This document shows positions 11,231-33,286 of a stretch of 64,000 bases of DNA, piece by piece. A program made the position numbers and the translations under genes. This DNA comes from Escherichia coli (GTDB lineage: Bacteria > Pseudomonadota > Gammaproteobacteria > Enterobacterales > Enterobacteriaceae). The stretch lies in NCBI RefSeq assembly GCF_046105845.1, contig NZ_CP151004.1. One strand, 5' to 3'. A model generated the notes under the pieces. The model was not told where the DNA came from. It ran no database searches and saw only the letters and a list, made by a program, of their open reading frames with translations. The first letter of the stretch is position 1; the number at the start of each line of letters is the position of its first letter.

Positions 11231-12523
11231 TCACAGATACGGCGACCAGGCAGGGAATTTGACCTGTCCATCAGTTGCCGGAAGACGCGCTTTGAAACGC
11301 CCATCTGTAGAAACCAAATTCAGCACGGATCCCATCCCCTGAGAAGAGCTGTAGATTACCATAGTGCCGTTAGGTGCCAGACTTGGCGTTTCATCCAGGA
11401 ACGTGGACGACAGAACTTGTACGCCTCCCGTTGCCAGATCTTGTTTGGCAATGTGCTGCTGCCCACCATTGGAGCTGACCATTACCATAAATTTACCGTC
11501 GCTGCTGACATCCGCATCCTGGTTCTGCGAACCTTCCCAGGTAATACGTTGTGGCGCACCGCCGTTGATATTCACTTTATAAACCTGTGGACGACCGGCC
11601 TGGTCAGAAGTAAATGCCAGGTTCTGGCTGTCCGGGAACCAGGTCGGTTCGGTATTGTTACTGCGACCATCCGTCACCTGGCGGATCTGACCAGAAGCCA
11701 AATCCATTACGTACAGGTTCAGACTACCGGTTTTCGACAAGGCGAATGCCAGTTTGCTGCCGTCTGGCGAGAATGCAGGTGCACCGTTGTGACGCGGGAA
11801 TGAAGCCACCTGACGTACAGCGCCATTTGCCAGCGTTTGGATGACCAGCGCGGAACGACCGCTTTCGAAGGTCACATAAGCCAGTTTAGAACCGTCTGGT
11901 GACCACGCCGGAGACATCAGCGGCTGCGGTGAACGGTGAACGACAAACTGGTTGTAACCGTCATAGTCAGATACGCGCAGTTCATACGGGAACTGACCGC
12001 CGTTGGTCTGAACAACGTAGGCAATACGGGTACGGAACGCACCTTTAATGCCGGTCAGTTTTTCAAACACTTCATCACTGGCGGTATGACCAGCATAACG
12101 CAGCCACTGCTTGTTCACTTTGTACGAGTTCTGAGCAAGTACAGTACCCGGTGCGCCGCCAGTGTCAACAAGTTGATAAGCAACATTGTAAGAACCATCC
12201 GGATTCGGAGTGACCTGACCGACAACTACAGCGTCAATACCCAGCGCGGACCATGCAGCTGGTTGTACTTCCTGCGCACTACCCGGCTGCTGTGGCAGAC
12301 GAGCGCGATCTAACGGATTAAATTTACCGCTGTTACGCAAGTCAGCAGCAACGATGCCGCCAATATCTTCAGGTGCCGCACCAGGACCCGCCCACTGGAA
12401 AGGAACAACACCAATAGGACGACCGGAATCTACACCGCTGTCGATCACAATGCGGACTTCAGCATGCAGAACTGATGCCCACAGTATGAGAAAACCAAAT
12501 GCTACTCGTAATGCCTGCTTCAT
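11231..12523 (-). CDS. tolB: Tol-Pal system periplasmic beta-propeller protein TolB
   Basis: 430 aa from [21 protein letters not shown]; matches E. coli TolB. Confidence 0.96.
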
Positions 12524-12655
12524 CATATCTCCCTTATCTGGACCGATGGCCCACGATAATTTAGCAGAATGTTAACAAACCAAAATACACAAAACTACCA
12601 GAACCCCGTGGCAACCGGTGCCTGATGTTGACCGTCGGAACAGTCAACATCGCGA

Positions 12656-13954
12656 TTACGGTTTGAAGTCCAATGGCGCGTTTTTGAACACTTCATATAC
12701 TGCCTGGCTTGGTGGTTTCGGGATCTTCGCAAGTTTAGCTGCTGCCAACGCAGCCTGACAAAGTGCGGGATCGCCACCTTCAGGTTTGATATCCAGTAAC
12801 ATACCATCGGGTGCCAGTTTTATGCGCAGCGTACAGGTTTTGCCTGCATAGGACGATGCGTCATAGAACTTACTTTCGATAGCAGATTTAATCTGCCCGG
12901 CATAGTTATTGATATCGGCCCCTGATGCGCCATTGTTTTTAGTATTACCACTCCCGGCTGGCGAAGCATTGTTCCCTTTCGCCCCTCCCCCCGTTTTCGG
13001 TGCATTCTTACCAGAGCTTAGCTCACCGAAAATATCATCTGCCTCTGCGGCAGCTTTTGCTGCAGCGGCTTTTTCAGCTGCTGCTTTTGCAGCTGCCGCT
13101 TTTTTGTCTGCGGCGGCTTTTTCTGCCGCTGCTTTCTTATCAGCTGCTGCCTTTTCAGCAGCCGCTTTTTCTGCTGCTTTTTTGTCGGCTGCAGCTTTCT
13201 CTGCTGCCGCTTTCTTATCAGCTGCAGCCTTTTCAGCAGCCGCTTTCTTCTCAGCTGCAGCCTTTTCAGCAGCCGCTTTCTTCTCAGCTTCTGCTTTGGC
13301 TTTTTCAGCAGCTTCAGTTGCCGCTTTCTTTCTTGCTTCAGCTGCAGCTGCTTCTGCCGCTTCCGCTTTCTTCTTCAGTGCCGCCGCGGCTGCCTCGGCT
13401 TTTTTCTGCGCTTCGGCTGCGGCTTTGGCGGCTTCTGCTTCTGCTTTTTTCTTCGCGTCTGCAGCCGCTTTCTTCGCAGCTTCTTCCGCAGCTTTAGCAT
13501 CCGCTTCGGCCTTCGCTTTAGCATCTGCCGCCGCTTTCGCTGCCGCTTCTTCCGCTTGCTTCTGCTTTAACTCGGCCTGTTTTGCGGCTTCTTCAGCCTG
13601 CTTTTTCTGTTCCTGAGCAGCTAACCGCTCTTTCTCAAGTTGCTTCAGGCGTTCCTGTTCAGCCGCTTGTTTCTCACGCAGTTCTTCAGCAGCCTGCTGT
13701 TCCTTCATCTTGCGCTGCTCATCAGAACGCTTCGCGCTTGATTCCTGGCTTTGCATGCGTTTGTACTGCTCAACTACCGCACCTGAATCAACCATGACAG
13801 CGTCGATGGATGAACCACCGCCGCCTCCGGCTGAAGCTTCTATATTCTCATCGAACGAACTCCAGATCAGCGCCGCAAATAAGATGACATGCAGCACTGC
13901 TGAAATAATTATCGCCCGCTTGAGCTTGTCGTTTTGTTCGGTTGCCTTTGACAC
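12656..13954 (-). CDS. tolA: Tol-Pal system protein TolA (432 aa; K-12 TolA is 421 aa as I recall)
   Basis: N-terminal anchor MSKATEQNDKLKRAIIISAVLHVILFAAL, long Ala/Lys/Glu-rich helical domain II, conserved C-terminal domain III. Confidence 0.95.
   Translation of the reverse strand: MSKATEQNDKLKRAIIISAVLHVILFAALIWSSFDENIEASAGGGGGSSIDAVMVDSGAVVEQYKRMQSQESSAKRSDEQRKMKEQQAAEELREKQAAEQERLKQLEKERLAAQEQKKQAEEAAKQAELKQKQAEEAAAKAAADAKAKAEADAKAAEEAAKKAAADAKKKAEAEAAKAAAEAQKKAEAAAAALKKKAEAAEAAAAEARKKAATEAAEKAKAEAEKKAAAEKAAAEKKAAAEKAAADKKAAAEKAAADKKAAEKAAAEKAAADKKAAAEKAAADKKAAAAKAAAEKAAAAKAAAEADDIFGELSSGKNAPKTGGGAKGNNASPAGSGNTKNNGASGADINNYAGQIKSAIESKFYDASSYAGKTCTLRIKLAPDGMLLDIKPEGGDPALCQAALAAAKLAKIPKPPSQAVYEVFKNAPLDFKP
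13030..13570. repeat. in-frame tandem repeats inside tolA domain II
   Basis: 30-33 bp units such as gctgcagccttttcagcagccgctttcttctca repeated back to back (e.g. 13222-13254 and 13252-13284), encoding KKAAAEKAAAD-type repeats. Confidence 0.8.
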
Positions 13955-14018
13955 TCTCGGTTCCCAAAAACTGTTCGCCTGTTACCCGCTCTCTTTCAAG
14001 CAAGGGAAACGCAGATGT

Positions 14019-14447
14019 TTAGATAGGCTGCGTCATTAAACCAACCGATTTCACACCCGCACTATGTAACAAGTTCAGTGCTTTAATTATTTCATCGTAA
14101 GGCACATCTTTTGCGCCACCGATCAGAAAGACCGTTTTCGGGTTGGCCTTGAAACGGCTGGACACTTCCGCCACCACCTGCTCTGGTGGCAAACGCTCCA
14201 GGCGATCTTTCTCAACCACCACGGTGTACTGACCAATACCAGACACTTCAACAATCACTGGCGGATTATCGTTACTGCTCACCGCCTGTGATTCAGTAGC
14301 GTCTGGCAGATCGACCTCCACGCTCTGGGTGATGATGGGCGCTGTCGCCATAAAGATCAGCAACAGCACCAGCAGTACGTCCAGCAACGGTACAATGTTG
14401 ATTTCGGACTTGAGATCGCGACGACCTCGTCCACGCGCTCTGGCCAT
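14019..14447 (-). CDS. tolR: Tol-Pal system protein TolR
   Basis: 142 aa, ExbD/TolR family; matches E. coli TolR. Confidence 0.96.
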   Translation of the reverse strand: MARARGRGRRDLKSEINIVPLLDVLLVLLLIFMATAPIITQSVEVDLPDATESQAVSSNDNPPVIVEVSGIGQYTVVVEKDRLERLPPEQVVAEVSSRFKANPKTVFLIGGAKDVPYDEIIKALNLLHSAGVKSVGLMTQPI

Positions 14448-14450
14448 GGC

Positions 14451-15544
<1,094 letters not shown>

Positions 15545-15650
15545 TTTACATCCCGGTAATGCAACAAAAGTTAGAGCTTTTAAACGCTGCTACTATACGC
15601 GCGCGATTGAGGTTTGGGAATGAGGGCAAGTTAAGGGAGCGTAAAAATTT

Positions 15651-15670
15651 ATGGGCCTGGAGCGGCCCAT
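15651..15670 (-). terminator. candidate terminator after ybgE (end of the cydABX-ybgE unit)
   Basis: Palindrome atgggcctggagcggcccat flanked by A/T runs, between ybgE and ybgC. Confidence 0.4.
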
Positions 15671-15693
15671 AATTTTTTAAAGAGAATTCTGAT

Positions 15694-15987
15694 TTAAAAG
15701 AAGAAGAAAATCAGCCCGACAATGAGAACAATATCGGCAAGCAATGGGCAAAAAATCCCTTGCCAAAGAACCTTCTGCGGACGAAAGCCCACGCCGTGAA
15801 TCACACCAGCACAGACGGCCCACATCAGCAATAAACCATGCCAGATTTCCAGTTCACTGGTCTTCGCGGCGAAACGTGATGGGTCCCAAAACATACATCC
15901 TGCTAACAGAAGCGCCATCACGAAGGAAAGCGCCCGCAGGGGGCGCTTGTCCATTACCGCATACAAGGTTGCGATAATCTTACTCAT
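15694..15987 (-). CDS. ybgE: cyd-operon inner membrane protein YbgE
   Basis: 97 aa hydrophobic protein; matches E. coli YbgE. Confidence 0.9.
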   Translation of the reverse strand: MSKIIATLYAVMDKRPLRALSFVMALLLAGCMFWDPSRFAAKTSELEIWHGLLLMWAVCAGVIHGVGFRPQKVLWQGIFCPLLADIVLIVGLIFFFF

Positions 15988-16100
15988 CAGATGTCTTCTT
16001 GACCGGCTTTGCCTGATTCGACGTGCTCAAGCGCCAGCGCGGTGATGACCCCAAACGAACAGGCAAGAAGCGTTCCCAGAATCCATGCGAAATACCACAT
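15987..16100 (-). CDS. cydX: cytochrome bd-I oxidase small subunit CydX (37 aa)
   Basis: Hand-translated from the minus strand: MWYFAWILGTLLACSFGVITALALEHVESGKAGQEDI*; lies between cydB and ybgE; too short for the ORF track. Confidence 0.85.
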   Translation of the reverse strand: MWYFAWILGTLLACSFGVITALALEHVESGKAGQEDI

Positions 16101-16114
16101 TTTTAGCTCCTTAC

Positions 16115-17254
16115 TTAGTACAGAGAGTGGGTGTTACGTTCAATATCTTCTTTGGTGATACGACCGAACATTTTCCAGTAACACCAGGCGGTGTAGAGCA
16201 GAATGATCGGTACCAGAACCACCGCAACCCAGGTCATGACGTTAAGTGTCAGCTGGCTGGAAGTTGCATCCCACATTGTCAGACTTGCGTTCATCATGGT
16301 GCTGGACGGCATCACAAACGGGAACATTGCGATACCGGCTGTCAGGATGATGCAGGCCAGCGTCAGGGAGGAGAACACAAACGCCCACGCGGCTTTATCC
16401 ATACGTGCAGTCAGGATGGTCAGCAGCGGCAGAACCACACCCAGTGCCGGAATAGCCCACAGAATTGGCGTGTTGTTGAAGTTAACCAGCCATGCGCCAG
16501 CTTCACGAACCACTTCTTTATTCAGTGGGTTAGAGGCTGCGTAATGGTCCATTGTCGATTTCACGACATAACCATCGATACCGTACATCACCCATACGCC
16601 AGCCAGTGCGAAACAGACCAGTGTCACCAGTGCCGCCACCTGAGCCGTTGCACGGGTACGCAGGTGCAGTTCGCCCACGGTACGCATTTGCAGATAGGTT
16701 GCGCCCTGAGTAATGATCATCCCTACGCTCACCACGCCTGCCAGCAGGCCGAACGGGTTAAGCAGCTGGAAGAAGTTACCGGTGTAGTACAGACGCAGAT
16801 ATTCATCAACGTTGAACGGTACGCCCTGCAACAGGTTACCGAACGCTACACCAATCACCAGCGGCGGAACGAAGCTACCAATGAAGATGCCCCAGTCCCA
16901 CATGTTACGCCAGCGGGTTTCTTCAATCTTGGAGCGGTAGTCAAAACCGACCGGACGGAAGAACAAAGACGCCAGCACGAGGATCATCGCCACATAGAAG
17001 CCGGAGAACGCAGCGGCATAGACCATCGGCCAGGCAGCAAAGAGTGCGCCGCCTGCGGTGATCAGCCAAACCTGGTTACCGTCCCAGTGTGGTGCAATGG
17101 AGTTAATCATAATTCGACGCTCGGTGTCGTTACGACCGAGGAAACGGGTGAGCATGCCCACCCCCATGTCGAAACCGTCAGTGACTGCAAAACCAATCAG
17201 CAGAACGCCAACCAGCAGCCACCAGATAAAACGCAATACTTCATAATCGATCAT
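16115..17254 (-). CDS. cydB: cytochrome bd-I ubiquinol oxidase subunit II
   Basis: 379 aa; matches E. coli CydB. Confidence 0.97.
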   Translation of the reverse strand: MIDYEVLRFIWWLLVGVLLIGFAVTDGFDMGVGMLTRFLGRNDTERRIMINSIAPHWDGNQVWLITAGGALFAAWPMVYAAAFSGFYVAMILVLASLFFRPVGFDYRSKIEETRWRNMWDWGIFIGSFVPPLVIGVAFGNLLQGVPFNVDEYLRLYYTGNFFQLLNPFGLLAGVVSVGMIITQGATYLQMRTVGELHLRTRATAQVAALVTLVCFALAGVWVMYGIDGYVVKSTMDHYAASNPLNKEVVREAGAWLVNFNNTPILWAIPALGVVLPLLTILTARMDKAAWAFVFSSLTLACIILTAGIAMFPFVMPSSTMMNASLTMWDATSSQLTLNVMTWVAVVLVPIILLYTAWCYWKMFGRITKEDIERNTHSLY

Positions 17255-17269
17255 TTGACGACTCCTGTC

Positions 17270-18838
17270 TTAGCGTGCCGGCTGAGTAGTCGTGGAAGAC
17301 TGCTCAAAGTGATAGCGACCGGTTTTCAGGCTGCTTGGGCCGAGGCGTGCAAATTTGAACATTAAGAACAATTCTGCCACCAGGAACAGGGTATACAGGC
17401 CGCAAATCAGCACCATTGAGAAGATGAGATCGCCTGCGGTCAGTGACGAGTTCGCCACAGCTGTCGGCAGCACTTCACCGATAGCCCACGGTTGGCGGCC
17501 ATATTCAGCCACGAACCAGCCCGCTTCTACAGCAATCCACGGCAGCGGAATACCGTACAGCGCGGCGCGCAGCAGCCATTTTTTCTCGCCAATACGGTTG
17601 CGGATGACACTCCAGAAAGAGAGCGCGATGATTGCCAGCAGCAGGAAGCCACACGCCACCATGATACGGAACGCGAAGTACAGCGGCGCTACACGCGGAA
17701 TGGAGTCTTTGGTTGCCTGTTGAATCTGCGCTTCAGTCGCATCAGCCACGTTTGGCGTATAGCGTTTCAGCAGCAGACCGTAACCGAGGTCTTTCTTCAT
17801 GCTATTGAACTGGTCACGAACCGCCTGGTCGGTAGAACCAGAACGCAGTTGCTCGAGCAGAGAGTACGCCTTCATCCCGTTACGAATGCGTTCTTCATGC
17901 TGCACCATCAGTTCTTTCAGGCCGATAACTGGAGTATCCACGGAACGCGTTGCAATGATGCCCAGCGCGTAAGGGATCTGGATCGCAAATTTGTTCGTCT
18001 CCTCTTCCTGATCAGGAATGCCGAACAGAGTAAAGGCAGCAGGCGCAGGTTGCGTTTCCCACTCGGCTTCAATAGCAGCCAGTTTGGTTTTCTGCACGTC
18101 GCCCATTTCGTAACCAGATTCATCACCCAGAACAATAACAGACAGAACGGCAGCCATACCGAAGCTGGCAGCGATAGCAAAGGAGCGTTTAGCGAAGGCG
18201 AAGTCACGACCTTTCAGCATATACCATGCGCTGATACCGAGGATGAACATCGCGCCAGTCACATAACCAGACGCTACAGTGTGAACGAATTTCACCTGAG
18301 CAACCGGGTTAAGCACCAGCTCGGAGAAGCTCACCATCTCCATACGCATAGTTTCAAAGTTGAAATCGGACGCGATTGGGTTTTGCATCCAGCCGTTCGC
18401 AACCAGAATCCACAGTGCGGACAGGTTTGAACCGAGCGCCACCAGCCAGGTGACACACATATGCTGAACTTTACCCAGACGATCCCAACCGAAGAAGAAC
18501 AGACCTACAAAGGTGGATTCGAGGAAGAAGGCCATCAGACCTTCGATTGCCAGCGGCGCACCGAAGATATCCCCTACATAGTGGGAATAGTAAGACCAGT
18601 TAGTCCCGAACTGGAACTCCATGGTCAGACCGGTTGCCACACCCAGAGCGAAGTTGATACCAAACAACTTGCCCCAGAACTTGGTCATATCTTTATAAAT
18701 CTGTTTGCCGGAAAGGACGTAGACCGTTTCCATAATGGCCAGCAGGAACGCCATACCGAGCGTCAGTGGCACAAAAAGGAAGTGGTACATCGCGGTCAAG
18801 GCAAACTGTAAGCGCGACAGTTCGACTATATCTAACAT
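17270..18838 (-). CDS. cydA: cytochrome bd-I ubiquinol oxidase subunit I
   Basis: 522 aa from [28 protein letters not shown]; the ORF-track start one codon upstream is rejected. Confidence 0.97.
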
Positions 18839-19175
18839 CATGACTCCTTGCTCATCGCATGAAGACTCCGAGAGTGAACCCCGTTAGAAAGGGTCACACG
18901 CATGCCCCAATACAAAATTATTTGCTCGCCTCTATCGTTGCCATTTCATCAAAAGAGGAAAAGACAATGATAAAAAAGTTACAAATATGTTAATGAATAA
19001 ACCAAATTGATCCCGTAATTATATTACGCCGCAAAATCCTTACAATAAACAGGTTTTTATTGAGCAAATTTGCATTTTTCGACAGTGATCAATTTATAGC
19101 GAAATTGTCACGATCTCACCAATTTGATCTACGACAATTTATCGTGTTTTGCAGATTTTTTTCAAGAATTAAAAA

Positions 19176-19189
19176 TTGATTTATATCAA
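19176..19189. promoter_or_regulatory. FNR-type palindrome in the cydA upstream regulatory region
   Basis: Perfect TTGAT-N4-ATCAA (ttgatttatatcaa) about 340 bp upstream of the cydA ATG; cydAB is FNR/ArcA-controlled in E. coli. Confidence 0.5.
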
Positions 19190-19643
19190 AACCAACCAAA
19201 TATGTTAATTATGTATAAACCATAGATCATTGGTGATTTTATTGTTAATTTATTGTGAAATATTTATGCAACACAATTATTACAATGAAAAGGTATAGAT
19301 AAAAAACCAGTGTTTTATTTAACAGAACCGCCTTATCCACTTTTTATAATACCAATTGATTAGATTAGCCAATTTGTTGCTATTTTACATAACATATTTT
19401 TATCAAAGTTAATTGATTGTTGCCTTTATGAGCACCGGCCGTAAGCCCGTTATGTTATTGTTTCATTAGTAATAATCACTTAAATGTATCGATGAAACAG
19501 GTATGACTTAGCGGGAGTGATTGTTTCTGAGTGAACAGAGACCACTTTCGCCTGATAAATGAAAAATGAGCGATTTTTGCAAGTTAGTTTTTCTATAGCC
19601 GAGTACGCTCAGCGCCTCGCTTGATTACAATGAGGTTGCTGCT

Positions 19644-20588
19644 ATGAGTCCTGATAATATCAGTTCTGCTGTCAATCGCTTCTCAGGTTGGCCATCTAAT
19701 AATCCTCTAAAAACAGATAACGAATCAATGACATCACCCATGACTGTGCAGGTAATAAAGATGATTGCCGCCATCCTTGACCCACATCGGATAGTCGTTG
19801 GAATCGATACACTTTATACAACGCAGCGCGAAACATTTACCTCAGAGAGTCAACAGCTCATTGAATCAGCATTGCAAACACTTCATGTGATGAATTTAAA
19901 TAACCTGGAAACAAATCTCGATGAGGAAGGTCACTATCTGGCTTTTGGATATAACGTTGACACTCCTGACAGAATAACCGTTTCTGCTTATAATGAAAAA
20001 AAGCCTGGCTGCTATGGCCAATGTCTTTTAATACAGGATGACGAAACAGACTTATTTAACCTGATAAAAGTTAAAATTTTTGAAGCCAGGCATAATTATG
20101 TCGCTCAATTGATGAGCGATCCGGAATTTATGTTCAAATTTAGTTATAGCGCTCAACAAAATAGATTAGAACCTCATCTTCTGGTTCCCACTTATTTCCC
20201 TCTAAAAACAAACGAACCGGTTACGCAAGAGGATGTACTGTTACTTTATCGTTTCTTTAAAATGGATGGTGATTTTAATATATTAACATCAGATGAATAC
20301 ATGAGTATCATGACACCTCTGATGAAGTGTGAGCGCAGCATCCACGACCACAACAGGTATGTGACGGGCAAAGATACCCTTCTTCTGGACTATCCTCCTT
20401 CTGGTAACCAGATATATTTCCATATTTTTCCTGACGAATCAGCAACACTAGTCCTTTATTTTTCAAACAATGACATTGAATGTTTCGTCTTTGAAAGAGA
20501 TATTCCGAGCCAGTATCGCTTTTTCAAAATGTTTACCAATCTGGCACTGGTTATTGATCAGTTAACCGATGCCAATCAAATACTTTAA
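19644..20588 (+). CDS. hypothetical protein, no recognisable family (orphan island gene A)
   Basis: 314-aa ORF with a GAGG RBS 7 nt upstream; markedly AT-rich (24 G+C in the first 60 nt); Ser/Asn/Pro-rich N-terminus. Confidence 0.7.
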   Translation: MSPDNISSAVNRFSGWPSNNPLKTDNESMTSPMTVQVIKMIAAILDPHRIVVGIDTLYTTQRETFTSESQQLIESALQTLHVMNLNNLETNLDEEGHYLAFGYNVDTPDRITVSAYNEKKPGCYGQCLLIQDDETDLFNLIKVKIFEARHNYVAQLMSDPEFMFKFSYSAQQNRLEPHLLVPTYFPLKTNEPVTQEDVLLLYRFFKMDGDFNILTSDEYMSIMTPLMKCERSIHDHNRYVTGKDTLLLDYPPSGNQIYFHIFPDESATLVLYFSNNDIECFVFERDIPSQYRFFKMFTNLALVIDQLTDANQIL

Positions 20589-20668
20589 TTTTTATATATT
20601 CTCTGTGGCAAATATTGCTAAACAATGCCCGGGGATTAATTTTTATTACTCACGGAAAGATTTAAATA

Positions 20669-21091
20669 ATGATCCCATCTCAAATCTCTTTCAACACCCT
20701 TCCTGTCAATGCAACATACGCTTCAGAGACAACAGTTGACACACAAAAATTCTCTGACATCCTCTACTCAGCGGGGTGTTCCCTAAAGGATCTGGCTTAT
20801 CTGAGCAGATGTCTGGCATCAATACATCCGACTATCGCCAAAAACATTTATGAAACAGAAAATCTCAGCGATCAAAAATTACTACATATTGATTGCCGTA
20901 GTACAAATGAAATCAAGATAAATATCTTTTTTGGTCAACAACGAGAAGGATTAATTGAAATTAGTTCTGACACAGTCATTTTTTCGATACTGTCTTCATT
21001 GATTGACTCCACCATTTCTAAATTTCAACACCAAAACCCCGTTAACGGTTCTGTAAATCCTGGCCTATTGTATGAGGATTATACTGATTAA
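20669..21091 (+). CDS. hypothetical small acidic protein (orphan island gene B)
   Basis: 140-aa ORF 80 bp downstream of gene A on the same strand; AT-rich; about 16 Asp/Glu versus 9 Lys/Arg by count. Confidence 0.65.
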   Translation: MIPSQISFNTLPVNATYASETTVDTQKFSDILYSAGCSLKDLAYLSRCLASIHPTIAKNIYETENLSDQKLLHIDCRSTNEIKINIFFGQQREGLIEISSDTVIFSILSSLIDSTISKFQHQNPVNGSVNPGLLYEDYTD

Positions 21092-21638
21092 ATCCCTCCT
21101 GTCGCGAAAAATGGCCTGCGTTATTGCCAGACGTAATAAAACTTTTGATTAACGTTTCTCGTACTGGTAGCACTTTCATGTACTTTTCTTTTTTACGAAA
21201 AATCAAAAGAGCTAACAAAGGTCATAATTCGCATGAATCATTAATTATTTGTTATTTTCAACATTATTTTTACATTAAGCAGAGATGAATTGCAGTGAAA
21301 TTCGACTTAACTTTTACGAAATGCATTTACTCATGGCTAAAGCCACGTCACAAAAATGCAAATTAGAAGTTGATCACAATTATCTCAATACATCAAATCA
21401 AGTTAATTTTAAAAATTTAACATTCATGACATTAGTTGACATAACACACTGAATTAAAATGAGAATTTGGAAACACACTTTAAACAATCATTTCCCGAAA
21501 GACATTTTGAAAATAGATCAATTGCAACATTACGGTCAGATAAAGACACTCCTGTGATATTAAACCTGTGCCGTTATGAACGGCCATAAATACGGCGTGT
21601 GTAACTTATTTTACTCTCTGTCTTACAAAGGATTACCC

Positions 21639-22088
21639 ATGAAGAAAGCAACACTTGTGATTGGCGTTATTGGCGCGGACTGCCATGCAGTAGGCAATAA
21701 AGTTCTGGACCGCGTTTTTAGCAACCATGGCTTCAGAGTCATTAATCTGGGCGTAATGGTCAGCCAGGACGAATATATTGATGCTGCCATTGAAACTGGC
21801 GCTGACGCGATTGTCGTCTCCTCTATCTATGGGCATGGCGATATCGACTGTCTGGGCATGCGCGAACGCTGCATCGAGCGTGGGCTGGGTAACATCCTGC
21901 TCTATGTGGGCGGTAACCTGGTGGTCGGAAAACATGACTTCGCTGACGTGGAAACCAAATTCAAAGAGATGGGATTTGATCGCGTCTTTTCCCCAAGTCA
22001 TGACTTAGAAGATGTTTGTCAGCTGATGGCCCACGATATCAACCAACGTCATGACGTTGATACTCGTATTCTTGAAGAGGCAATCTGA
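21639..22088 (+). CDS. glmS: glutamate mutase (methylaspartate mutase) small S subunit, cobalamin-binding; clostridial GlmS/MutS, not glucosamine-6-P synthase
   Basis: 149 aa from [24 protein letters not shown] with AAGGA RBS; DxHxxG B12-binding motif; strong similarity to Clostridium MutS/GlmS as I recall it; ORF-track start at 21576 rejected. Confidence 0.9.
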
Positions 22089-32621: not shown

Positions 32622-33185
32622 AATGCCGTCCCTTAAAAATAGTTTAAACCATCAAAAATACATTACTTATTACGAAGTAATGGTAACCAAAGCAGCAATA
32701 AATAATTTATAAGAATCATGATTGACATTTATAACCCAGTAAGCCTGGCGTGACAAATATCTTAATCAGATAATAATAATCCGAAAAGCACAGCGCCTTT
32801 CGAATTATCCGGAATCACATTAAGTGAAAATTATTAAATTGATATCATTTATCATATCTGTGGATATTATGATAAACAATCAACAAAGATTTTATTTTTG
32901 ATTTATAGCATATCCCTCTAAGAATTTTTGCGATGCTGCAATATCCGGGGTAAAGACCCGATCCTGGCTGACAAATGGCACGACTTGACGATAAGCGGTG
33001 AACATCGCTTTTGTTGATTTACTTAACGCTACGGTCAAACGCTGGGAAGCCAGTGCATCAGGTAACGATTCGAAATTCGCCGTCGTTCTTATTCGTGGCT
33101 TGCGGTCGGTTGCGGCAATCCACAGTGGCTGTGGTCATGCAGTCAAGCCAGCGGTCAGATTTCGACCGTGGTTAACATTTAAGGC

Positions 33186-33286
33186 ATAAAAAAGGCCATC
33201 ATATGATGGCCAACCATGTCGAAACCGACAGCCCTTCGCCATTCCTGTAGAGGGAAGCGGCGAGGGCTATTTCTTATTACAGATAT
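33186..33286 (-). ncRNA. sdhX: probable SdhX (RybD) sRNA from the sucD 3' UTR with intrinsic terminator
   Basis: About 100 nt between the sucD stop and a ggccatcat/atgatggcc hairpin followed by a U-run on the minus strand; positional equivalence to the K-12 sucD 3'-UTR sRNA; sequence identity not verified. Confidence 0.45.

Follow-up and report, generated by a model that had tools for sequence, protein, structure and literature searches.

A second allelic form of the cydAB control region, probably native to Escherichia, upstream of cydA in an Escherichia coli genome

Cytochrome bd-I is central to the low-oxygen growth of Escherichia coli, and the promoter of its cydAB genes is the textbook case of combined FNR, ArcA and H-NS control, worked out entirely in strain K-12. 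The present analysis concerns the 805-bp spacer at positions 18839-19643 of a 64-kb stretch of E. coli DNA (the window), located between cydA and an open reading frame (ORF) that starts at 19644. The reading preferred here, with a probability of roughly 0.78, is that the spacer is the native, ordinary cydAB control region of Escherichia in an allelic form (allele B) other than that of K-12 (allele A), and that it holds no island junction scar.

In K-12, the cydAB promoter P1 has been described with the operators Fnr-1 and Fnr-2, sites for phosphorylated ArcA, and silencing by H-NS (Cotter et al. 1997 and Govantes et al. 2000, to the extent that they are related in PMC3688515 and PMC3798270). 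A single FNR site at -53.5, acting by direct repression, was assigned to cydAB by Myers et al. 2013 (PMC3688515), and three ArcA sites, cydA1-3, were located upstream of K-12 cydA by chromatin immunoprecipitation sequencing (ChIP-seq) in Park et al. 2013 (PMC3798270). Oren et al. 2014 reported switched intergenic regions, a form of horizontal regulatory transfer, in E. coli, according to the account in Thorpe et al. 2018 (PMC5890482). The glutamate-fermentation (methylaspartate pathway) cluster of E. coli O157:H7 was characterized by Kronen & Berg 2015 (PMC4682846), and a glutamate-mutase (glm) island of this type lies to the right of the spacer in the window. An earlier, sequence-only reading had taken the spacer, with a perfect FNR palindrome in it, for the left junction of this island. 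As the operator, the control region and the glm island were all known already, that finding proved to be largely ordinary.

The cydA spacer and its two alleles

The description of a long, AT-rich region upstream of cydA could be confirmed together with its bounds. The G+C content of the spacer was 33.2%, compared to 50.8% for the whole window, with a minimum of 23.5% at 19200-19399. Values of 23-31% prevailed across 18900-19500, a composition that would agree with H-NS binding. The K-12 counterpart, the mngB-cydA spacer, measured 846 bp; it is given as 847 bp in PMC3946193, with five promoters and H-NS binding. The stretch adjoins cydA on its upstream side and runs on into an mRNA leader 100% identical to that of K-12, and its assignment as the cydAB control region was also upheld. 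The ORF list placed the start of cydA at 18841 (an ATGATG start), and the RefSeq annotation of a 99.7% identical genome at the equivalent of 18838.

The modular layout was determined from an alignment of six sequences, namely the window, N96, FDAARGOS_1261, AVS0787, K-12 and HH97; an engineered strain carrying a cat cassette (L005) and an error-ridden assembly (L095) were left out. Genomes with a TPR gene beside cydA are referred to as the TPR haplotype or TPR type. The gene and the modules were as follows.

17270-18838, minus strand: coding sequence of cydA (cytochrome bd-I subunit I; Pfam Cyt_bd_oxida_I, E = 1.9e-171), with the start taken from the RefSeq annotation of the 99.7% identical genome
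18839-18912, minus strand: M0, the 74-bp cydA mRNA leader, 100% identical in all aligned sequences, with a covarying hairpin at 18874-18897
18913-19215, minus strand: M1, proximal regulatory core carrying allele B; identity 72.8-73.9% to K-12 (allele A) and ~94% to Escherichia albertii
19216-19479, minus strand: M2, distal module; identity 74-80% to E. albertii and to E. coli of the TPR type, none significant to K-12
19480-19643, plus strand: M3, upstream region of a 314-amino-acid (aa) gene; 74.1% identical to E. albertii and without counterpart in the TPR and K-12 haplotypes

Identity to K-12 fell abruptly from 100% to ~73% at 18912/18913. The 72.8-73.9% found over 18913-19215 compares with a usual within-species level of about 98-99%. 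Two classes could be distinguished in M1: class B comprised the window, N96, FDAARGOS_1261 and AVS0787 (93-98% among themselves), and class A comprised K-12 and HH97 (99.7% to each other), with 70-73% between the classes. For cydA itself, the nucleotide identity of the window was 98.9% to K-12 and 88.6% to Citrobacter werkmanii. An M1 identity of 73.9% between the alleles, against 98.9% for cydA, indicates that A and B differ at the inter-genus level. Against two Citrobacter species, M1 identity was 77-78% for B and 70-71% for A; against Enterobacter cloacae, it was 75% for B and 73% for A.

The sequence-only reading had proposed that alignment to K-12 would locate the island breakpoint. The homology did end inside the stretch, sharply at 19214/19215, followed by a weak similarity of ArcA repeats on to ~19268, but no interrupted K-12 sequence was present, the identity being ~73% from 18913 onwards. 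An extension of the K-12 homology to 19479 was rejected by shuffle tests (z = 1.5). The strain HH97 was found to be a mosaic, in which allele A gives way abruptly, at 19214/19215, to a distal module of the TPR type. In the window, M2 was about 80% identical to the genomes with the TPR gene beside cydA, and the junction with that haplotype, at 19479-19485, was the only junction inside 18839-19643. Judged by these alignments, the region is orthologous to the K-12 control region yet a different allele.

Predicted regulator sites of allele B

Regulator occupancy and the direction of regulation in allele B were taken from the site-for-site correspondence with K-12. The blocks conserved among A, B and other genera were the ArcA boxes, three FNR-type boxes, the -10 region of P1, and the block TTACAATAAACAGGTTTTT. 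The predicted sites, listed from FNR and promoter elements to ArcA boxes, were as follows.

19176-19189, unstranded: predicted Fnr-2 operator, the perfect palindrome TTGATTTATATCAA, unique in the window, conserved, at 52 bp spacing
19136-19165, minus strand: predicted P1, with -35 TTGAAA at 19165-19160, an 18-bp spacer and -10 TAAATT at 19141-19136; predicted start ~19129
19124-19137, unstranded: predicted Fnr-1 box TTGATCTACGACAA, overlapping the predicted P1 start, centre -1.5
19079-19092, unstranded: FNR-like box TCGACAGTGATCAA with 2 mismatches, retained in K-12 and in other genera
19018-19045, minus strand: promoter-like site TTGTAA-16-TATAAT, candidate downstream cydA promoter; 10/12 consensus matches, situated within the cross-genus conserved block TTACAATAAACAGGTTTTT
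18976-18993, plus strand: predicted ArcA box AAGTTACAAATATGTTAA, 20.5 bits, counterpart of K-12 cydA3 (14.9 bits at equal distance)
19202-19219, plus strand: predicted ArcA box, 16.5 bits
19231-19248, plus strand: predicted ArcA box, 14.9 bits
19242-19259, plus strand: predicted ArcA box, 20.9 bits
19268-19285, minus strand: predicted ArcA box, 14.3 bits
19202-19285, plus strand (minus strand at 19268-19285): ArcA direct-repeat cluster, putative counterpart of K-12 cydA2
19389-19406, minus strand: predicted ArcA box, 17.6 bits
19406-19423, plus strand: predicted ArcA box, 14.2 bits
19389-19423, unstranded: distal ArcA-box pair, 551-585 bp upstream of the ATG, positional counterpart of K-12 cydA1 at 570-600 bp

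The perfect TTGAT-N4-ATCAA palindrome was found at 19176-19189 as reported earlier, and TTGATTTATATCAA was the sole match on both strands of the 64-kb window. The chance level was a mean of 0.10 matches, with at least one match in 9 of 100 dinucleotide-preserving shuffles. The K-12 homologue of this box is TTGATAAATATCAA, and across 14 aligned sequences from ~12 enterobacterial genera the box at this position, mostly TTGATTTAAATCAA, kept TTGAT-N4-ATCAA in nearly all cases. The hexamer geometry of P1 puts the centre of the palindrome 53.5 bp upstream of the predicted start, which matches the published value and thus identifies it as the known Fnr-2 operator, so that the suggestion of a genuine FNR operator was borne out.

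The Fnr-1 box TTGATCTACGACAA corresponds to TTGATCGAGAACAA in K-12, and the distance between the Fnr-1 and Fnr-2 centres was 52 bp in the window and K-12 alike. The Fnr-1 motif TTGATC....CAATTTA was conserved in 14/14 sequences. A third FNR-like box, 45 bp downstream of Fnr-1 and of the form TCGACGGTGATCAA in K-12, sits inside the cross-genus conserved block TTTTTCGAC.G.GATCAATTTATAGC. We know of no function assigned to this box at 19079-19092. The -1.5 position of Fnr-1 relative to P1 is presumably the one given by Govantes et al. 2000.

ArcA boxes were scored with a weight matrix constructed from 112 published ArcA boxes (supplementary tables of PMC3798270), with the three cydA boxes of K-12 excluded. 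Seven predicted boxes of at least 13 bits were obtained in the spacer against 0.29 expected, a result reached in 0/200 shuffles. They formed three clusters ~140, 365-445 and 550-585 bp upstream of the ATG, almost the same distances as those of the K-12 ArcA sites (135-152, 370-418 and 570-635 bp). In the box at 18976-18993, the GTTAC...GTTAA core was conserved across 14 sequences, and in the cluster at 19202-19285 the repeats TGTTAAT-ATGT and GTGAA..TGTTAA..ATGT were conserved across genera. Within the distal module, conservation was highest at the distal pair, where 18/18 and 15/18 positions did not vary among 6 sequences. The boxes of the window generally outscored those of K-12 (20.5 vs 14.9 bits; 20.9 vs 12.5 bits). 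The sequence-only reading had named, as an outcome that would speak against it, a fully intact K-12 region with the breakpoint beyond all known sites. That was not what the alignment showed either: cydA1 of K-12 lies in DNA that is not homologous to the window, although the window has its own conserved ArcA pair at the same distance.

By analogy with K-12, FNR dimers on Fnr-2 (-53.5) and Fnr-1 (-1.5) would repress P1 under anoxia, and phosphorylated ArcA on the three direct-repeat clusters would raise expression under microaerobic conditions. These clusters sit in very AT-rich DNA that may be silenced by H-NS. The region can be pictured as modular: the 74-bp leader, identical across genera, would be the first module; a core of ~350-430 bp, conserved solely in protein-binding blocks, the second; the distal part common to the TPR haplotype and E. 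albertii the third; and the upstream region of the divergent, Escherichia-restricted 314-aa gene the fourth.

All E. coli haplotypes examined, with either allele, had a leader 100% identical to that of E. albertii, two Citrobacter species and Superficieibacter, and the identity with Citrobacter was found despite a cydA coding identity of only 88.6%. Explicit pair counting of its hairpin (GUGACCCU...GGGG.UCAC) in 14 Enterobacteriaceae revealed 6/8 pairs changed on both sides. The covariation was 0.416 against 0.242 in shuffles, with 0/500 shuffles reaching the observed value, and more distant genera had a different hairpin at the same position of the leader. The single-sequence fold of the leader was not unusual (z = 0.19), and the RNAalifold consensus of 34 Enterobacterales gave no support in the hairpin segment, where the alignment was out of register. 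An Rfam scan of 18700-21700 returned solely a chance miRNA match (E = 0.97).

Distribution and ancestry of the alleles and the edge of the island

Allele matches were counted in 5426 complete E. coli genomes at a threshold of at least 95%. Allele A was present in 3180 genomes, 3179 of them at 99% or above, and allele B in 2245 (1109 at 99% or above and 1136 at 95-99%), while no genome fell in the 90-95% band between them. The haplotype markers were found in 3178 (K-12 distal segment), 1107 (TPR junction) and 1138 (island-side sequence) genomes; these three counts together leave almost no genome over, so that three haplotypes cover essentially all of them. They are allele A with mngAB (K-12 type, ~59% of the genomes), allele B with the TPR gene (~20%), and allele B with the 314-aa gene and the glm island, as in the window (~21%). 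Among a few named strains, A was present in K-12, O111:H8 and O103:H2, and B in O157:H7 (M1 100% identical to the window) and Nissle 1917 (98.7%), which gives the split a largely clade-linked look.

The mngB gene of K-12 (L001 4986-6700) and that of a B-haplotype strain (L007 7073-8780), the form linked to the TPR gene, agreed at only 69-95% per 100 bp, which suggests a separate origin of the whole mngAB cassette of the K-12 haplotype. Divergence in that haplotype therefore runs from 18913 through mngB, in keeping with an import of allele A along with mngB-side DNA. In most Enterobacterales, including Salmonella (765-bp spacer), sucD lies directly upstream of cydA. The slot upstream of cydA is occupied by mngB in Kluyvera, E. 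cloacae and two others, and by the TPR gene in an Enterobacter species and in Pectobacterium. Such varied contents between conserved flanking genes mark the sucD-cydA interval as a site of recurrent exchange, and it may act as a recombination slot for alternative cassettes, with three haplotypes in E. coli.

The ancestry of the alleles could be assessed with a contig (L089) whose proteins were named Escherichia albertii in many genomes by exact-sequence look-up. Its order was tolB...cydA, an 805-bp spacer, the 314-aa gene, a 258-aa gene and sucD, with no glm island. Identity to the window was 94.7% for cydA, 93.7-94% for M1, 77.7% for M2 and 74.1% for M3, and E. albertii M1 was 72.8% identical to that of K-12. 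The presence of the spacer and the 314-aa gene in E. albertii indicates old Escherichia DNA and an ancestral-type allele B. Allele A is probably derived, by promoter replacement in the K-12 lineage, although the direction of replacement is one that we infer. Allele B would then be the ancestral Escherichia form, and an enterobacterial donor outside the sample would most likely have supplied allele A and its mngB-side DNA through homologous recombination.

Several points weigh against the reading of the spacer as an ordinary native control region of the ancestral type. The polarity was based on E. albertii alone among the other Escherichia species; the listed members of the YbgE cluster were almost all E. 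coli or Shigella, with no other Escherichia species among them, and neither Escherichia nor Salmonella was represented among the 600 matches listed for the CydA N-terminus in a genome collection. The outgroups were completed from look-ups of YbgE and of the orphan protein. No donor of allele A was found among the genera sampled, to all of which A is roughly equidistant, and it is formally conceivable that B passed between E. coli and E. albertii long ago. The presence of allele B in all island genomes was deduced from the totals and not from a genome-by-genome tabulation. In allele B, every regulator site and promoter is predicted, from homology and matrix score. Promoter-like sites were not enriched in the region (4 against 4.4 in shuffles), and with counts at the chance level the individual promoters are supported solely by geometry and conservation.

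Three other explanations were weighed. It is unlikely that no transfer took place and that the split represents an ancient balanced polymorphism or a locally faster divergence of a weakly constrained AT-rich spacer. The site geometry is identical in both alleles, and most of what differs lies between the conserved blocks that bind proteins, as would be seen under purifying selection on the sites only. However, the boundaries are abrupt (100% to ~73% at 18913; the HH97 switch at 19214/19215), there are zero intermediates among 5425 genomes, and the divergent block in the K-12 haplotype goes on through mngB coding DNA. Furthermore, E. coli B and E. albertii differ by only 6% over the same spacer positions, and the local rate is thus not exceptional.

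The greater closeness of B than of A to Citrobacter (77-78% vs 70-71%) could also be explained if B and the glm island had entered together from a Citrobacter-like source via cydA/sucD recombination, with A as the original E. coli allele. In agreement with this, C. werkmanii, Citrobacter sp. FP75 and Pseudescherichia vulneris also have glmS divergent from cydA, there without the two orphan genes that separate them in the window. Such an import is nevertheless quite improbable. Allele B is present in ~1107 island-free E. coli (TPR haplotype) and in the island-free E. albertii, where its 94% identity tracks the 94.7% of cydA as for vertical descent, and the 77% to Citrobacter is far under the level of a recent import. 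Allele B is also more diverse in E. coli (1109 genomes at 99% or above and 1136 at 95-99%) than A (3179 at 99% or above), which suggests that B is older.

The edge of the island could be narrowed by comparison with both groups. E. albertii was collinear with the window over 11553-20694 and then jumped to sucD at 33186. The homology of Citrobacter and Pseudescherichia to the window covered 18700-19189 and resumed at 21483-21525 and from 21604. Collinearity to 20694 and glm homology from 21483 together place the left edge of the island outside 18839-19643, 1-1.8 kb rightward. The two features concerned are given below.

20694-21483, unstranded: interval holding the true left edge of the glutamate-mutase island, from the end of E. 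albertii collinearity to the start of glm-cluster homology
19644-20588, plus strand: 314-aa orphan gene, divergent neighbour of cydA, present only in Escherichia and outside the glm island proper

An insertion point within 18839-19643, as proposed by the sequence-only reading, is contradicted by E. albertii, which has the spacer and the 314-aa gene without the glm island; likewise, the gene at 19644 was wrongly taken for the first gene of the island, as the same gene stands beside cydA in this island-free species. The explanation that a K-12-like cydA region was cut by an island starting at 19644, with altered regulation of cydAB or the orphans, is thus highly improbable: it fits the stop of significant K-12 homology at ~19215 and the position of K-12's strongest ArcA ChIP-seq site, cydA1, in DNA without sequence counterpart in the window, but not the E. 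albertii collinearity, the sharing of 19216-19479 with TPR-type E. coli, the Citrobacter glm clusters that lie beside cydA without 19190-21480 altogether, the sequence left of the supposed breakpoint, which is not K-12-like either (73%), or the lack of insertion signatures (tRNA, direct repeats). No tRNA genes were found in 15000-36000, no direct repeats were found bracketing the island, and no integrase or transposase was annotated in the island of a near-identical genome.

The right end of the island lies at ~33020-33148, directly beside sucD, and the island varies in content between genomes. The genome FDAARGOS_497 was 98.6% identical over window positions 9132-33020 and carries an extra hut (histidine utilisation) cluster and RtcB gene in the segment from the LysR gene to sucD; the island of the window is without this hut cluster and RtcB gene.

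The orphan genes (19644-21091) had a G+C content of 33-41%. Relatives of the 314-aa protein formed 5 clusters among 5.8 billion proteins and were confined to E. coli and E. albertii, the E. albertii orthologue being 65% identical and of equal length. The same length in E. albertii, the absence of internal stops and a dN/dS of 0.32-0.44 indicate that the ORF is a real gene. Neither orphan protein (314 aa and 140 aa) had a Pfam, NCBIfam or PADLOC match, and the AlphaFold model of the 314-aa protein was too poor for use (mean pLDDT 43.9). In E. albertii, the place of the 140-aa gene is taken by an unrelated 258-aa protein, named 'Transporter' by one source. Control of the orphan gene by anaerobic (FNR) regulation, as proposed earlier, is unlikely, as the palindrome lies 455 bp from its ATG and no sigma-70-like plus-strand promoter for the 314-aa gene was detected in the promoter scan, including 19548-19643. 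In this block of ~100 bp upstream of the gene, conservation between E. coli and E. albertii exceeded that of the gene itself, and the block may be a 5' untranslated region or an unusual promoter. Further downstream, TTTTGAAAATAGATCAATTGC at 21505-21525, ~115 bp upstream of glmS, did not vary among P. vulneris, two Citrobacter species and two variants of the E. coli island, and the DNA around it was unalignable among them. It looks like a putative CRP/FNR-family operator for the glutamate-mutase operon.

Meaning and comparison with known systems

According to the counts, the cydAB promoter of 41% of sequenced E. coli, O157:H7 and Nissle 1917 among them, is as unlike that of K-12 as another genus's. 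As only the binding sites survive between the alleles, the A/B pair represents a natural footprinting experiment, and its comparison pinpoints functional elements, including conserved blocks without assigned function. Caution is advisable in carrying K-12 quantitative regulation models over to pathogenic lineages. The consistently stronger predicted ArcA boxes and the different distal module of B could point to a functional difference, in which B may alter the microaerobic induction profile of bd-I and the replacement by A would have been an adaptive regulatory change and not a neutral one. This reading is doubtful and is put forward tentatively. Allele B is the one found in O157:H7, Nissle-type and other non-K-12 lineages, and the K-12 allele is the one behind all oxygen-regulation models.

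The spacer resembles the K-12 cydAB region in its position, the 74-bp leader, the perfect Fnr-2, the Fnr-1 box 52 bp away, the -53.5 geometry, the distances of the ArcA clusters (about 140, 365-420 and 550-590 bp upstream), the length (805 vs 846 bp) and the AT-richness. It differs in an identity of ~73% over 18913-19215 and in the absence of significant similarity beyond ~19215-19268. The N4 of Fnr-2 is TTAT in the window and AAAT in K-12, and the neighbour is the divergent 314-aa gene in the window, whereas in K-12 it is the convergent mngB with a REP element.

Like the O157:H7 glutamate-fermentation cluster, the window has glmS/glmL/glmE and methylaspartate ammonia-lyase. By collinearity with an annotated genome (9132-33020, 98.6%), it also shares AtuA, DUF4387, a dicarboxylate symporter, a class I fumarase (mesaconase type), cobO and a LysR regulator. 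The present finding concerns the neighbour of that cluster and not the cluster itself, and the text of PMC4682846 makes no mention of cydA or of the two orphan genes. Unlike a classical integrative island junction, this one has no tRNA, flanking repeats or annotated integrase, and it lies outside 18839-19643.

No literature linking cydA with intergenic or promoter allele variation was found in a search that did not cover the original E. coli survey. Switched intergenic regions, as described in Thorpe et al. 2018, share with the cydA locus upstream regions that are less than 90% identical or non-homologous at one core gene within one species (A/B ~73%), sharp boundaries, and conserved flanks able to mediate recombination, and one mosaic strain, HH97, was found here. 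They differ from it in that the cydA alleles are homologous and keep all predicted regulator sites, and thus look like the outcome of a conservative exchange and not of a rewiring. Going by these sequence features, the cydA promoter dimorphism falls under the established phenomenon of switched intergenic regions.

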